From Trueperaceae bacterium (GTDB lineage: Bacteria; Deinococcota; Deinococci; Deinococcales; Trueperaceae): a stretch of DNA of 64,000 nucleotides. The DNA lies in assembly GCA_965215565.1 (NCBI GenBank), contig CBDCDZ010000004.1, positions 1,184,001-1,248,000 of the forward strand. Direction: 5' to 3'. The notes beneath the pieces were generated by a model. It worked only from the letters and a program-made list of their open reading frames with translations, made no database searches and was not told the origin of the DNA. Below, piece by piece: positions 26,213 through 32,240 of this stretch. How positions within the stretch are numbered: the first letter of the stretch is position 1; the number at the start of each line of letters is the position of its first letter. The translations under genes and the position numbers were made by a program.

Positions 26213-26557
26213 CTAAAGCTGTTTTACATCCTTCGCCAACTTCTGCGCTACCAGCGCGTTCAAGCTGATACCCGCTTGCGCCGCTTCGAGGGCTAAAGCG
26301 CGGTGAATACGCTTGTCAATTCGCACATTGAATTGACCGCTATAATTCTTCTTAGCAGGCGCTACGGGGATAGGCTCTCCTGCCTCTTTGTAGCTTTCTT
26401 TGACCAGTGCCCAAGCTGTTCTCAGCTCCTCTACAGCCTCGTTCGGTGCGTCGGCAAAAGCTGAGACGTGCGGCAGCTCAACGAAGTGCGCGAGCCACTC
26501 CCCGTCCTCGTCGAGGAACACATTGACCGTAAATCCGTCAAACTCTTGTGCTGTCAC
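26213..26557 (-). CDS. hicB: HicB antitoxin
   Basis: YSGQFNVRI...HR.LA..A...GISLN RHH tail; overlaps the hicA stop. Confidence 0.88.
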   Translation of the reverse strand: MTAQEFDGFTVNVFLDEDGEWLAHFVELPHVSAFADAPNEAVEELRTAWALVKESYKEAGEPIPVAPAKKNYSGQFNVRIDKRIHRALALEAAQAGISLNALVAQKLAKDVKQL

Positions 26558-26793
26558 GCGCTCTCCTCCTCATAAATCGTGAGAAACTGTCCAACTTGAT
26601 ACCCTTTAGCTTTGCCGCTCTTCCCTTCCTGTATTGGTAAACGTGCGCCCCTAGTAGAAATCCATATCCGGTGACTCCCGCGTTGCCTGTCGAGCGTCCA
26701 GTTACAGCGCTGTAACAACGTCTCGAATTCGCTAAACCGCAACCCTCCAGGGTTACGCCTAGCCTTCTCTAACAGCTTATCCGTTCGTGTCAT
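26554..26793 (-). CDS. hicA: HicA toxin (mRNA interferase)
   Basis: LRFSEF..LL, RGSH and K.YQV motifs; leaderless TATAGT box. Confidence 0.85.
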   Translation of the reverse strand: MTRTDKLLEKARRNPGGLRFSEFETLLQRCNWTLDRQRGSHRIWISTRGARLPIQEGKSGKAKGYQVGQFLTIYEEESA

Positions 26794-26876
26794 ACTGTGA
26801 CTATATCTGGTTACACATGTGTAACCCTGAAAGCGTTGATGTTACCTCAGATGAGATTACTTTAAGGGAGAAGCTC

Positions 26877-27815
26877 TTGAAAGTTTTTATCAGTTGGTCT
26901 GGTTCACCTAGCAAAGAGGTTGCTGAGCTTTTAAGCGAGAACCTTCCTTCAATTATCAATGTGATTGAGCCGTTCATGTCTCAGCGTGATATAGGGTCAG
27001 GTGAACAGTGGAGCCGGAGAATTTCGGCAGAACTCGATGAAACAAGTTTTGGTATCTTTTGTCTGACGCGCGATAATATTGACGCACCTTGGCTTCATTT
27101 TGAAGCTGGTGCAGTTTCAAAGCTAGGTGGTAGGGTAGCAGGTCTCCTTATTGGCGACCTCTCCCCAACTGACATCAACAATCCTTTGACTCAGTTTCAG
27201 CATCGGTATTTTAATGAGAGGGATTTTGAGAAGTTGATTTTAGACATCAACCAAACAACCGATTTCAAGGACGAGATTATCCGCAAGAGTTTACGTGCTC
27301 AATGGGGAGAAGTAGAGCAGCAGTACAAAGATATTTTGAAGACAAAGTACACTAATTCACCTGTGAAGCGAAGGTCGGTGGACGATTTTATGAAAGAGGT
27401 ATTGCTGAGAATAAGAAATGTAGAGAAAGAGGTCTCAAGTATTAGTAAACCTGTTAGCAAACTGGCTAGTAAACCATCTAACGTACACACCCGTATAAAA
27501 AAGTCTTGGTTTGATAGCCATCCCACTTTCGATCCCGAAAAGACCACATATGGTTTCACAGTTTACTACTCGAATCTTTCTTCTACCGACGCAGAAGCAT
27601 TTGCCAAGGTAGCTACTAAAACGTTCAGGGATATGTCTGTGCAAATTTTTGCTCATTCCATCAACCATTACCAAGCTGGTCGCTCTTTCCATGTCACCTG
27701 TCAGGTAGATAACGGTAGTGGTAAGAGCGTTGCCTCCATTGAGCAGTTATTGAGAAATGCTCTTGAGAACGCAGCTCTACAGTACTTTGATGAGTCTGGC
27801 TACTACGTAGATTAG
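26877..27815 (+). CDS. TIR domain protein with unknown C-terminal region (AT-rich)
   Basis: KVFISWSG...DIGSGEQW...WLHFEAGA; probable TTG start after GGGAG (ORF open from 26787). Confidence 0.8.
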   Translation: MKVFISWSGSPSKEVAELLSENLPSIINVIEPFMSQRDIGSGEQWSRRISAELDETSFGIFCLTRDNIDAPWLHFEAGAVSKLGGRVAGLLIGDLSPTDINNPLTQFQHRYFNERDFEKLILDINQTTDFKDEIIRKSLRAQWGEVEQQYKDILKTKYTNSPVKRRSVDDFMKEVLLRIRNVEKEVSSISKPVSKLASKPSNVHTRIKKSWFDSHPTFDPEKTTYGFTVYYSNLSSTDAEAFAKVATKTFRDMSVQIFAHSINHYQAGRSFHVTCQVDNGSGKSVASIEQLLRNALENAALQYFDESGYYVD

Positions 27816-28102: not shown

Positions 28103-30133
28103 CTACAATACGCTCTGCAACGCTTCTAAAGTCTCCGTTAAGCTCTGCGACTCGAGGGGCGAAAGTTTGCCCTCACCGAAGACGCGCAGACACGCTTGGG
28201 CGACGCGCGGGTCAAAATGGCGTCCGCTTCCGCGTGCAATCTCCGCGAGCGTCGCCTCGACGGACCAGGCCTCTTTATAGGGTCTTTCGTGCGTCAGCGC
28301 GTCCAACACGTCAGCGACGGCGACGATGCGCGCCGCTTCGGGGATGGCGTCACCGGCGAGCCCGTAGGGGTAGCCTTGCCCGTCGTAGTGTTCATGATGG
28401 GAGAGCGCGATCTCTTCGGCGACTTGCAAGAGGCGCGAGCGCCCGTCCGACAAAATACGCGCGCCGATCACCGTGTGGTGGCGGATGAGTTCGAACTCGC
28501 CCTGCGTGAGCTTGTCGGGCTTGAGCAAGACCGCGTCACTGATGCCGATCTTGCCGACGTCGTGAAGTCTTGCGGCGGTGTAGAGGAGTTTGACCTCGTC
28601 GTCGGGGTAGCCGAGCGCGTAGGCGATGGCGGCGGCGTTTCTACCGACGCGCCGCGTGTGCTCACCCGTGATGTCGTCACGGTATTCGGCGGCCAGCGCT
28701 AGGCGCGTGACTACCTCGAGCTGCGACTCCTCGAGTTCCAGGGTACGTTCCGCGACGGCGGCTTCGGCTTCGCGCCGCGCTCTCTGCGCGACTTGGGTGC
28801 GCAAACGGTACGTTTCGGCTTCGTGGCGAGCGCGTTCGACCTCGAACTGCACAGTGAGCTGGCGCGTCTTCTCCTCGCTCTCGCGGTTGAAAAGCGCTCT
28901 TTCTAGGCGGTGGAATTCGCGCTGATGAGAGAGAGCGTTCGCCAAATCGCCGTTCGCCTCGTAAGCCCTAGCGAGAAGTTCGTGCGCCTCGTAAACGGAT
29001 TTCAGGCGCTCTAAGTTCTCAGCGAGCGAGAGCCCTTCGGCTAAAGCGCGCGCGGCGCGTTCGGGAAGATTCAGCTCGAGGTAGTCCCGCCCCAAGTTGA
29101 GTAGGGCGTCCATCTCGCCTCCTCTATCGCCGACATCCTTGGCGATAGAGAGCGCTGACCTATGCGTTTTAAGCGCGTTCTCGAAATGTCCTAGTGCAAC
29201 TTGTACCTGTCCCAGACCGTCTAAGTTGTCGATTTCGTAAGCCCGGTTGTTGACGCAACGAGAAAGCTCCAGCGCCTCCTCGAAGAGCGTTTGCGCGTCG
29301 CGCCACTGCTTTCTGTCGTAATGGAGGTTGGCTAAGTTGTTGAGCGCCGCCGCCTCCATGATGGCATCCCCCGCCGCGCGGCTGATCTTCCGCGCACGCT
29401 GCAGAAAGGTGAGCGCCTGCTCGTCTTGTCCCATGACCTGATAGAGGTTGCCTAGGTTGATGAGGTTGGCAATCGCACTTCGCGAATTTGGCGCGACGCT
29501 TTGGAGCAAGTCGTACGCTCCCTTCAAAGACACCAGAGCGCTCGGATAGTTGCCGAGGAAGCATTCTATCTGTCCGCTATAGTCGAGGATATTCGCTTGA
29601 CGTTCACGTAAACCGTGGCGTTGGGCGATGGGGAGCGCATCTTTGAGATACTCGAGCGCGCGCCCATACTCTCCCTGCTCAGCCACTACACCCGCTAAGA
29701 GGTTAAGGGCTTCGGCTTCTAAAGGGTTGCCCACTTTCCGACTCAGTACTAAAGCTTTAGCTAACCAGTCGGAGGCGTCGCCGAACTGAGCGAGGTCACG
29801 GTAGACGCGCCCTAGCATAAGAGCGCACTCGAGCGCACTTGGGGAGCTTTGCGCGGCTTGCGCGTTCTCAGCCCTCAGCAGCGCATAAGCTTCAAGGAGT
29901 GAACGCAGCGCTTCGGCTGAATACCCCTTTTGATAGTACGCTTTGCCGATGAGTAGCGAGGCTTCCGCTGCCACTATGAGGTTCGCCGATACACCGAGTA
30001 CGCCGTGAGCAAGCTCTAACGCCCGCGCTGGGTCCTGTTCAAGCACCGCCGCCGCGTCAGCGAGCGACGCTTCGACTTCAGCTCCGGGCGCAGATAGAGA
30101 GTTGGCAGCAGGGTTGTGACTTAGCGCGGACAT
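28103..30133 (-). CDS. TPR-repeat / HD-GYP cyclic-dinucleotide phosphodiesterase
   Basis: Multiple TPRs (ALNNLA.LHY.., LDGLG.V); [17 protein letters not shown] and VADVLDAL motifs; no signal peptide or TM. Confidence 0.92.
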
Positions 30134-30164: not shown

Positions 30165-31837
30165 TTACTCTTTGCTCATTGGGGCGAGCGGTCCGCCAAG
30201 GCTCTCGCCAGAGACCACTTCGAAGTTCTTCTCAACCGATCCAGGACCAACGGGTTTCTTGCAGTCAGTACGCAACTTGCCGCGCTTTTTATCGTCCTCA
30301 TAAAGGGTCGATCTCTTTGCCCATCGTGTCATCACCGTTCTTACCCGTAAAAGAGAAGGTCTTACCAGGGTCCACTTCCCCCTCGAAGAGAACCGCCTTG
30401 CCGTCCTTTTGCACCACGCGGATGTCCTCGTCATCCGAGCCCGTGTAGCGCAGCGTCAGGCGCGTTACGCCTCCTTCACAGGAAAGAACTGCTTTATCTT
30501 TCTTACCTTTGCCCTTCTTCTGCTTGACGACCTCTTCCAAAAAGACAGCGAGGTCTAGACGCCCCTCGCCTAACTGACCGACGTAGTCTGCGTTGCCTTC
30601 CTCTGCGTAGAGGTTAAAGCTTTGCGCCTTGAGCGCTTCGGCGAGTTCTTTGCGCTTGACATTGAGTTTTTCACCGAGCGCGAGCGCCAGCGCACCAGAC
30701 GCCATCGGCGCAGCCATCGAGGTGCCGCTCCAAGCCGCTAGGCGCTCCCCCGGAGCCGGGCTGTAGACATTCTCACCGGGCGCGGAAAGTTCGACCTCAG
30801 CGCGGTACGTCGCGAAGTCGGACTTGACGTCCGCGCTGTCCACGCTCGTTACGCTGAGCCGCCCCGGAGCCGTTTTTGCCCGCGTCGCCGAGCGCGCCGG
30901 ATAGGACACGGCCGTGTCGCCCGTGTTGCCCGTAGAGGCGACGACGAGCACGCCTTTTTTCACCGCCGTATCAATGACCTCTTCGATCGCCTTGACCTCT
31001 TCGTTGCTCCCCAAACTCAAGTTGATCACGTCCGCTTTCATCTTCACCGCCCAGTGAATCGCCGAGGCGACGTCGGTCAGGTTGCCGCCGCCACCAGGTC
31101 CAAGCACGCGGATAGGGAGAATCGTGGCGCGCGGCGCGACTTGGCGGACGATGCCCGCAACGTTAGTGCCGTGTCCGTAGCCTCCCTCGCCCAAAACGCC
31201 CTCTTCTTGGGGTGTGGCGTCGCCATCATAGAAGTCCCACCACTCTTTCTCCGGGGCTAGCGCCTCTACGAGAGCGGGGTGCTCCAGATCAATCCCCGTG
31301 TCAATAACGGCAACTTTGACACCCTGGCCCAAGTTGCTCGCTACTGCGTGCCCTTCTTCTAAGCGGACTTGTCGCCACAAAGAGGTGTTCTCGGGCATCC
31401 AGGCGTACTCACCACCCGCCCATACATTAGAGCGACCTCCCGCCCACACGTTCGAACGTCCGCCAGCCCATACGTTAGAGCGACCTCCTGCCCACACGTT
31501 GGAGCGCCCTTCCATCTGCGCCCGCTCACCGCCGAGTAAAAAAATGTCGTCGTTGGCCTCGAGTAATCCCTCTACTTTTTCGTTCACCTCCTATAACCGC
31601 AAACGTCCCCGGCTCCCATACGAGCACCTTGCCGTTATATTCCGCTTCAACACTGGCGAGCGTATCCTCAGCGCTGAGGGCGACGGTAAGCGCGTACTCG
31701 GGATCGGGGACATCAGCGCCGAGTGGACGGGCGTCCTCACTTGGAGAGAGACTGCACCCGCCGAGCGAGAGCGCAAGCGTAGTCGCTAAGAGCACGCGCC
31801 TTGTATAGGAAGTTGACAAGATGAGATGGTTGAACAT
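30165..31837 (-). CDS. Subtilisin-like S8 lipoprotein protease with (GRSNVWAG)4 pro-region; two apparent single-base frameshifts (about 31588 and about 30305)
   Basis: Lipobox LGGC in ORF 31526-31837; triad IDTG / HGT / GTSMA in ORF 30298-31587; C-terminal domain continues in ORF 30165-30434. Confidence 0.8.
31414..31509 (-). repeat. Four coding tandem copies of GRSNVWAG (24-nt unit, synonymously diverged)
   Basis: Unit 1 GGG CGC TCC AAC GTG TGG GCA GGA; unit 2 GGT CGC TCT AAC GTA TGG GCT GGC; unit 3 GGA CGT TCG AAC GTG TGG GCG GGA; unit 4 GGT CGC TCT AAT GTA TGG GCG GGT. Confidence 0.95.
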
Positions 31838-31956: not shown

Positions 31957-32066
31957 AAAGGTTGCCGTGCGCTAAGTTTGTGAACTTTTTTATTTTTGCG
32001 AGAGTGAAAAAAGCAACCTTTTGCCCCTTTTTTGGCAACCCTTTGGCAACCTTTGCTCTTTAAGAT
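31957..32066. promoter_or_regulatory. Repeated (G)GCAACC(T/C)TT boxes and putative -10 (TAAGAT) in the divergent promoter region
   Basis: Copies at 31957-31966 (reverse), 32013, 32034 and 32045; TAAGAT at 32061. Confidence 0.45.
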
Positions 32067-32111
32067 AAGAACAAGCCAGGGAAGAAATCCCGGCACGAAA
32101 AGGAGAGAATT

Positions 32112-32240
32112 ATGAAAAAGAAGATGCTCGTTGCCCTCACCGTCAGCCTTTTAAGCCTCGGATTCAGCACCAGCGTCGCGGGAAAGTACCAGGGCTCGTC
32201 ACCCACGACCGACGGTAGAAGCAACGTCTGGGCTGGCTAA
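32112..32240 (+). CDS. Small secreted peptide precursor (42 aa) ending in GRSNVWAG, absent from the ORF track
   Basis: AGGAG RBS; MKKKMLVALTVSLLSLGFSTSVA|GKYQGSSPTTDGRSNVWAG*; followed by a terminator. Confidence 0.9.
   Translation: MKKKMLVALTVSLLSLGFSTSVAGKYQGSSPTTDGRSNVWAG

Follow-up and report, generated by a model that had tools for sequence, protein, structure and literature searches.

Tandem octapeptides in the zymogen linker of a Deinococcota lipoprotein subtilase as candidate signals for an adjacent TPR-HD-GYP protein

Intracellular peptide signalling has been described for Bacillota, where its outputs are transcription factors or Rap proteins. The locus reported here resembles the RRNPP(A) systems of Bacillota (Rap-Phr, NprR-NprX, PlcR-PapR and AimR-AimP) in its small precursor with a putative Sec-type N-terminus and a C-terminal candidate signal, in its cytoplasmic TPR protein and in holding repeated copies of the candidate signal within one precursor, and it would likewise need extracellular proteolysis and re-import, both of which are proposed here. 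Duplicated pheromones that are processed from a single precursor into several active peptides are, for example, described for Rap-Phr (PMC11343458). The locus is unlike RRNPP(A) systems in its Deinococcota host, in a 676-aa receptor with N-terminal TPRs and a c-di-GMP enzyme as output, and in that a dedicated protease zymogen contains most copies of the candidate signal, with a peptide gene that is optional and often unlinked. In addition, the closest solved sequences to the receptor TPRs are those of peptide-binding Pins/LGN, behind which the similarity to Rap is marginal (RapH, E 6.5e-4).

Five criteria for an RRNPP quorum-sensing system are set out in PMC10075063. Among those given there, TPRs in the receptor and a propeptide of 10-100 aa (here 42 aa) are found, whereas the receptor, at 676 aa, exceeds the range of about 250-500 aa, and the protease gene separates the receptor and propeptide genes, which by that scheme are direct neighbours; they adjoin in only two (G170 and G120) of the 20 peptide-bearing genomes. 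Because two of the five criteria, receptor size and gene adjacency, thus differ, we do not class the module as a member of RRNPP.

The protease itself shares the pro-domain, catalytic fold and intact triad of pro-subtilisin E, pro-Tk-subtilisin and thermitase; unlike these S8A subtilases, it has a predicted lipoprotein anchor, two to seven Trp-containing repeats before the mature N-terminus, a fixed TPR-c-di-GMP neighbour and matching peptide genes. A further parallel is offered by cyanobactin-type RiPP precursors and ComX, with their repeated short cores associated with a subtilase and a Trp near the C-terminus, although here no tailoring enzymes are found among the neighbours, the cores lie within the protease, and the neighbour is of receptor type. 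The following features were assigned in the window, that is, the whole stretch of 64,000 nucleotides analysed, which belongs to a Trueperaceae genome (G000 below):

28103..30133, minus strand: gene for a 676-aa TPR plus HD-GYP protein (candidate receptor and c-di-GMP phosphodiesterase), immediately following the protease gene in the same direction
30165..31837, minus strand: lipoprotein subtilase gene (S8), about 557 aa, split into three ORF pieces by single extra bases, very likely assembly errors, near 31587 and 30309
30532..31413, minus strand: catalytic S8 domain with Asp/His/Ser triad and oxyanion Asn motifs (Pfam PF00082, E 1.8e-44; thermitase best)
31414..31509, minus strand: four tandem GRSNVWAG units in the linker joining pro-domain to catalytic domain of the subtilase
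31486-31509, 31462-31485, 31438-31461 and 31414-31437, minus strand: the individual units of that array
31528..31708, minus strand: subtilisin-type pro-domain ending E-A-N-D-D-I-F-L-L-G-G (family consensus end E-P-N-R-D-V-F-S-G-G)
31754..31837, minus strand: predicted lipoprotein signal peptide ending L-G-G-C, from sequence; the Cys column is nearly invariant in 98 homologs
32008..32095, plus strand: upstream element with GCAACCYTT repeats, also present in G000 before a further small secreted-type ORF and before a decayed ORF
32112..32240, plus strand: gene for a 42-aa peptide precursor, divergent from the protease gene, encoding a basic-hydrophobic N-terminus, a polar spacer and T-D-GRSNVWAG-stop
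32214-32237, plus strand: fifth GRSNVWAG copy, with AGA/AGC codons, forming the last 8 codons of the 42-aa ORF before TAA
32268..32295, plus strand: perfect 12-bp hairpin, terminator-like, 3' of the peptide gene; seen in the sequence, absent from the consensus scan

An earlier note on this DNA had regarded the protease as a gene in need of frame repair, but the broken frame is very likely not real. The reading frame is open in the orthologues of two same-genus relatives (G001 and G002), and alignment to G001 places single extra bases in the window gene near 31587 and 30309. Logan contigs of 144 and 141 nt have one base fewer at each of these places and no other letter different from the window; they come from runs X1 and X2, which are one sample, possibly the source of the assembly, and are thus evidence of the error and not of a second population. 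We consider both frameshifts very likely to be assembly errors, and a true pseudogene and a programmed frameshift were rejected on the strength of the Logan contigs.

The anatomy of the zymogen was taken from the G001 orthologue, modelled from 98 sequences (pLDDT 89.7); a single-sequence fold of the same protease was unusable (pLDDT 35). In this model, an ordered pro-domain (residues 1-60) is followed by a disordered stretch (65-99, pLDDT<50) that holds the repeats, and then by the ordered catalytic domain, giving the features of an S8A zymogen: an S8 domain with intact triad and a folded pro-domain N-terminal to it. Over residues 1-391 the model superposes on pro-subtilisin E (PDB 3whi; Z 42.5, rmsd 2.2, 325 aligned), which together with pro-Tk-subtilisin (2e1p) and thermitase (1thm) makes up the structural matches at Z 40.7-42.5. 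Plain subtilisins match the catalytic domain over about 261-266 residues, residue 1 of the mature enzymes falling at model residue 99, the Gly after the last WAG, with which the catalytic domain begins. By sequence, the pro-domain profile gave no propeptide match in PDB or Pfam and no Pfam I9, and an ESM Atlas search returned generic S8 clusters only. The cut register is, therefore, derived from the place at which the mature start aligns structurally and from the parallel between the motifs. The 8-mer units end [AMIVL]-W-A-G and are followed by G, and the pro-domain consensus ends V-F-S-G and is followed by G, which suggests a common cut pattern of a hydrophobic, an aromatic and a small residue, Gly, and then Gly; the window protease's own pro-domain end (I-F-L-L) deviates from the F-S-G consensus. 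The Gly-Gly junctions that the note had likened to polyprotein precursor spacers fit the fold model and the pro-domain-end consensus, cleavage there being putative.

Searched for with a degenerate pattern, GRSNVWAG turns up exactly five times in the window, where chance would give 0.03. Units of the array differ from one another by 3-6 bases, and in the codon-level comparison every difference falls at a third codon position, so that the claim of protein-identical, synonymously diverged units is confirmed, as is the claim that the peptide-gene copy encodes the same eight residues with other codons. The reported mixture of CGN with AGA for Arg and of TCN with AGC for Ser is found across the five copies taken together; in the protease array Arg is always CGN and Ser always TCN, and AGA/AGC are confined to the peptide gene, as they are in the peptide genes of G001 and G002. 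A second strain in run X2 differs at window position 31453, within unit 3, and this difference is synonymous too.

Purifying selection acts on the octapeptide word, as the earlier note had proposed. At least 11 changes are needed within the array (31414..31509) and 11/11 are synonymous, although synonymous changes make up only 76/288 of the possible single-base changes; pure neutral slippage as the origin of the array was rejected on this count. Between G000 and G001, whose catalytic domains are 95% identical, the word has shifted from SA to NV in each of the four units and, together with them, in the peptide gene. The accompanying argument against recent slippage or DNA copying holds for recent slippage in the window array, in which units share 12/42 codons, below the 16.5 expected from the gene's codon usage. 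It does not extend to the family. Over 97 arrays, amino-acid-identical units share 1066/1845 codons (58%) against 39% expected, which rejects an absence of DNA copying; units identical in DNA occur in 4/97 arrays, and the G001 array shows an ABAB duplication pattern. Codon identity exceeds random in 74/97 arrays and falls below it in 21/97, and selection for codon scrambling as a family rule was rejected accordingly. At the same time, the catalytic region keeps 252/333 codons between G000 and G001 and position-matched units keep 6/20, and such a codon deficit relative to the orthologous background recurs in most close genome pairs. Given the family-wide copying signal together with this deficit, the arrays turn over by duplication or conversion, through which new words are spread, and selection retains the protein word. 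The window array is more scrambled than the orthologous background.

The 42-aa peptide has no Pfam match. Its family comprises 34 distinct sequences, all with a basic N-terminus and a hydrophobic stretch (11-residue hydropathy 2.45), in which W is invariant, G stands five before W in 32 and D six before W in 26; the shared architecture is a signal-type N-terminus, a spacer and D-G-x4-W-A-G-stop. Where databases name these peptides, they are hypothetical or uncharacterized, save for one automatic 'Spy/CpxP family' label. Iterated profiles, with 19-59 candidates scored per genome, found peptide genes in the window genus, in its three genomes, and in at least 17 of 125 Deinococcaceae genomes (20 genomes as a lower bound), and no family member in other families among 364 phylum genomes. 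Profile matches that covered the signal-peptide part alone were dropped as chance; eight borderline candidates were fetched with a few neighbours, and two of them (G110 and G105) are members of the family.

The setting of the peptide gene varies. In G170 a TPR-GGDEF-EAL gene starts about 180 bp downstream of it and no protease gene intervenes, and in G120 it is convergent and follows the receptor gene. G111 has two peptide genes, one of them internally duplicated, and neither the protease nor the receptor of the clade was found in that genome. In G156 the peptide gene is decayed, and the repeats are changed relative to G057. Other small secreted-type ORFs stand near c-di-GMP or TPR genes in G000. 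At C4:982404-983704, an HD-GYP gene is followed by a 42-aa ORF with GFKISN twice at its C-terminus and with the upstream element seen at 32008-32095; a third copy of that element (C4:4392700-4392900) precedes a decayed-looking peptide gene, next to a transposase where the contig ends. At C4:3311360-3313330 (L208), and likewise on contig C9 of G002 (L205), two tandem small secreted-type ORFs follow an HD-GYP gene that has a sensor-like region at its N-terminus and is similar to the one at C4:982404-983704; these ORFs end Q-K-[FY]-R-V-N-[CR] and form a second candidate peptide/c-di-GMP module. A 59-aa secreted-type ORF at C4:1422816-1422995 lies near a TPR gene (match 1423315-1424118).

Peptide tails generally track the word of the protease in their own genome. 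Across the 19 genomes with both parts, and for the proteases fetched, the tail agrees with its own unit at 8/8 positions in six genomes, 7/8 in three, 6/8 in seven and 5/8 in one; the non-matching tails are those of G170 (3/8), where the protease in question is the genome's only one, and G069 (2/8). Own-word agreement averages 2.68 of 4 variable positions against 1.18 +/- 0.21 after shuffling (p 1e-4, for genomes that are not independent). In 11 of the 19 pairs the genes are linked and some of these were first spotted by matching, which makes the unlinked eight, with the peptide gene on another contig or about 100 kb away, the cleaner test: three of them match at 8/8 and two at 7/8, and the mean is 2.88 against 1.87 shuffled (p 7e-4, again for non-independent genomes). 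Controls for ancestry weaken this tracking without abolishing it. Among nine disjoint closest pairs, the own word beats the swapped one in seven, ties in one and loses in one (30 versus 4 positions), and in two other closest pairs (95% and 88%) peptide and unit do not co-vary. Set against the three nearest foreign proteases, the own protease wins 12 comparisons, ties 2 and loses 5 (2.68 versus 2.21), so that part of the match is due to shared ancestry. Free variation of the units in homologs, independent of any neighbouring peptide, had been named as the outcome that would speak against selection on the peptide. The units do vary widely between homologs, and a peptide gene is present in only 16/87 protease-bearing Deinococcaceae genomes, yet where one exists it usually tracks the unit.

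The protease is found in 26/61 relatives and in 87/125 Deinococcaceae genomes searched, and also in annotated Deinococcus replicons including that of D. radiodurans, in which a TPR gene and an HD gene follow it, separated in that isolate by a transposase (L102). The analysis covered 118 proteases under 84 genome labels, which are the matches with the best scores; 102 of them have a TPR gene within 1.5 kb (58 with HD, 14 with GGDEF, 24 cut by the locus edge and 6 other). Typical arrays hold two to seven Trp-containing units between pro-domain and mature N-terminus; at least two such units at 7- or 8-residue spacing were called, a few of them loosely, in 109/114 first-pass proteases. Fully protein-identical arrays number 46/118 and A-B-A mixtures 28/118, with one unit or none called in 5/118. 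G000 itself encodes three paralogous subtilases with 7-residue Trp units (C4:941726-946732, 3638815-3642137 and 4206213-4211253), each near a TPR gene (two TPR-GGDEF, and one TPR with a C-terminus that is CHAT-like by eye), and no peptide genes were found beside them. Further peptide/protease classes may exist besides the W-A-G class. A protease in L020 has I-V-R-D-[FD]-W words, and a secreted-type ORF in L215 (G124 C1:2038493) ends T-N-G-I-R-D-F-G-F.

The candidate receptor matches Pfam TPR_12 (E 1.7e-32) and HD_5 (E 4.8e-31), and its HD and HHExxDGxGYP motifs are intact in translation, which predicts a phosphodiesterase; no signal peptide was seen in its 676-aa sequence. Complete receptors of the family are mostly about 560-910 aa long. 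Asn, Asp and Tyr are conserved at groove-type TPR positions, the groove Asn across 70 receptors, and no significant tracking of the repeat word by groove positions was detected (p 0.09). G000 also encodes six family-5 peptide-binding transport proteins. The TPR-HD-GYP gene, a TIR-domain protein, an NAD(P)-binding protein and a sugar ABC transporter are the neighbours of the locus, and no modifying enzyme adjoins it among the neighbouring genes examined. Just past the receptor gene, a lower-GC stretch (26213-27815) holds a HicB/HicA-like gene pair, recognized by eye, and the TIR-domain gene.

One and the same word recurs in the linker of a zymogen and in a separate peptide of secreted type, each tied to TPR-c-di-GMP genes, and the simplest account of this would make the word a pheromone and the protease its maturase and main precursor. 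With the zymogen's anatomy in place, a word under purifying selection that co-varies with stand-alone peptide genes, and a conserved TPR-c-di-GMP neighbour, we judge it somewhat probable that the repeats are extra copies of a signalling octapeptide, cut by the protease from itself and sensed by the adjacent TPR-HD-GYP protein. The zymogen would be exported and lipid-anchored, and would process itself at the pro-domain end and after each W-A-G (W-A-G|G), the last cut making the mature N-terminus and freeing GRSNVWAG units. An optional source under separate regulation would be the 42-aa precursor, which, once secreted, would yield the same octapeptide by a cut at D|G. An oligopeptide transporter would then re-import the octapeptide, which may bind the Asn-lined TPR groove and alter phosphodiesterase activity, in either direction. 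The W-A-G end, which is constant, would be there for the protease, and the receptor would read residues 2-5, which vary, as an address; duplication or conversion carries new words through the array, and selection retains them.

It could instead be that the word acts on the protease, with the repeats copying the processing site as pseudo-substrates or autoinhibitors and so setting the time of activation, the secreted peptide as an inhibitor in trans or a decoy, and the TPR protein sensing some other product. The unit end does mirror the pro-domain end, peptides track the protease of their own genome, the receptor does not detectably co-vary with the word, and the majority of loci have no peptide gene. 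We nonetheless hold this to be unlikely: unit residues 2-4 are homogenised and matched even though, at 5-7 positions before the cut, they fall outside the usual subtilisin subsites, and the G170 peptide, which stands at a TPR-GGDEF-EAL gene, does not match its genome's only protease. More doubtful still is that the stand-alone gene is the sole pheromone source, with the protease as maturase or degrader and the repeats as a cleavable linker (cf. the IS1 insertion of pro-Tk-subtilisin) homogenised by DNA copying. Such copying is common in the arrays, the best structural matches are pro-subtilisins with an insertion at the same site, and units differ freely between homologs; however, about four fifths of the protease-bearing genomes show no peptide gene and yet keep repeats and receptor, and copying within the protease cannot account for the match to a separate gene with other codons or on another contig.

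Finally, the units might not be linear pheromones; they could be an amyloid-type templating motif, or the cores of a peptide that is modified or cyclic. Gly-to-Gly units would permit head-to-tail closure, multi-core precursors are handled by subtilases in the case of cyanobactin PatA/PatG, and ComX has its Trp three residues from the end, much as here. This is nevertheless very improbable, as no modifying enzyme adjoins the locus, nothing follows the unit in the peptide gene, the catalytic domain is matched structurally by plain subtilisins, and the constant neighbour is a c-di-GMP enzyme.

In the openly accessible literature searched, no description of a protease-repeat/TPR/peptide module was found. 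If the repeats are indeed signalling octapeptides sensed by the TPR-HD-GYP protein, exact ligands (GRSNVWAG, for instance) could be named for a large orphan class of TPR-HD-GYP/GGDEF proteins, and the proposal is cheaply testable with synthetic octapeptides, Deinococcus species being genetically tractable. The linker of a protease zymogen would be a new source of signals, one that couples signalling to protease activation. It is tempting to speculate, at roughly even chances, on a phylum-wide peptide communication in Deinococcota in which the protease is the main pheromone precursor, its activation frees a burst of octapeptide, TPR-fused HD-GYP/GGDEF enzymes convert that burst into c-di-GMP, and optional stand-alone peptides amplify, jam or eavesdrop. 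Intracellular peptide signalling would then extend to Deinococcota and be linked directly to c-di-GMP.
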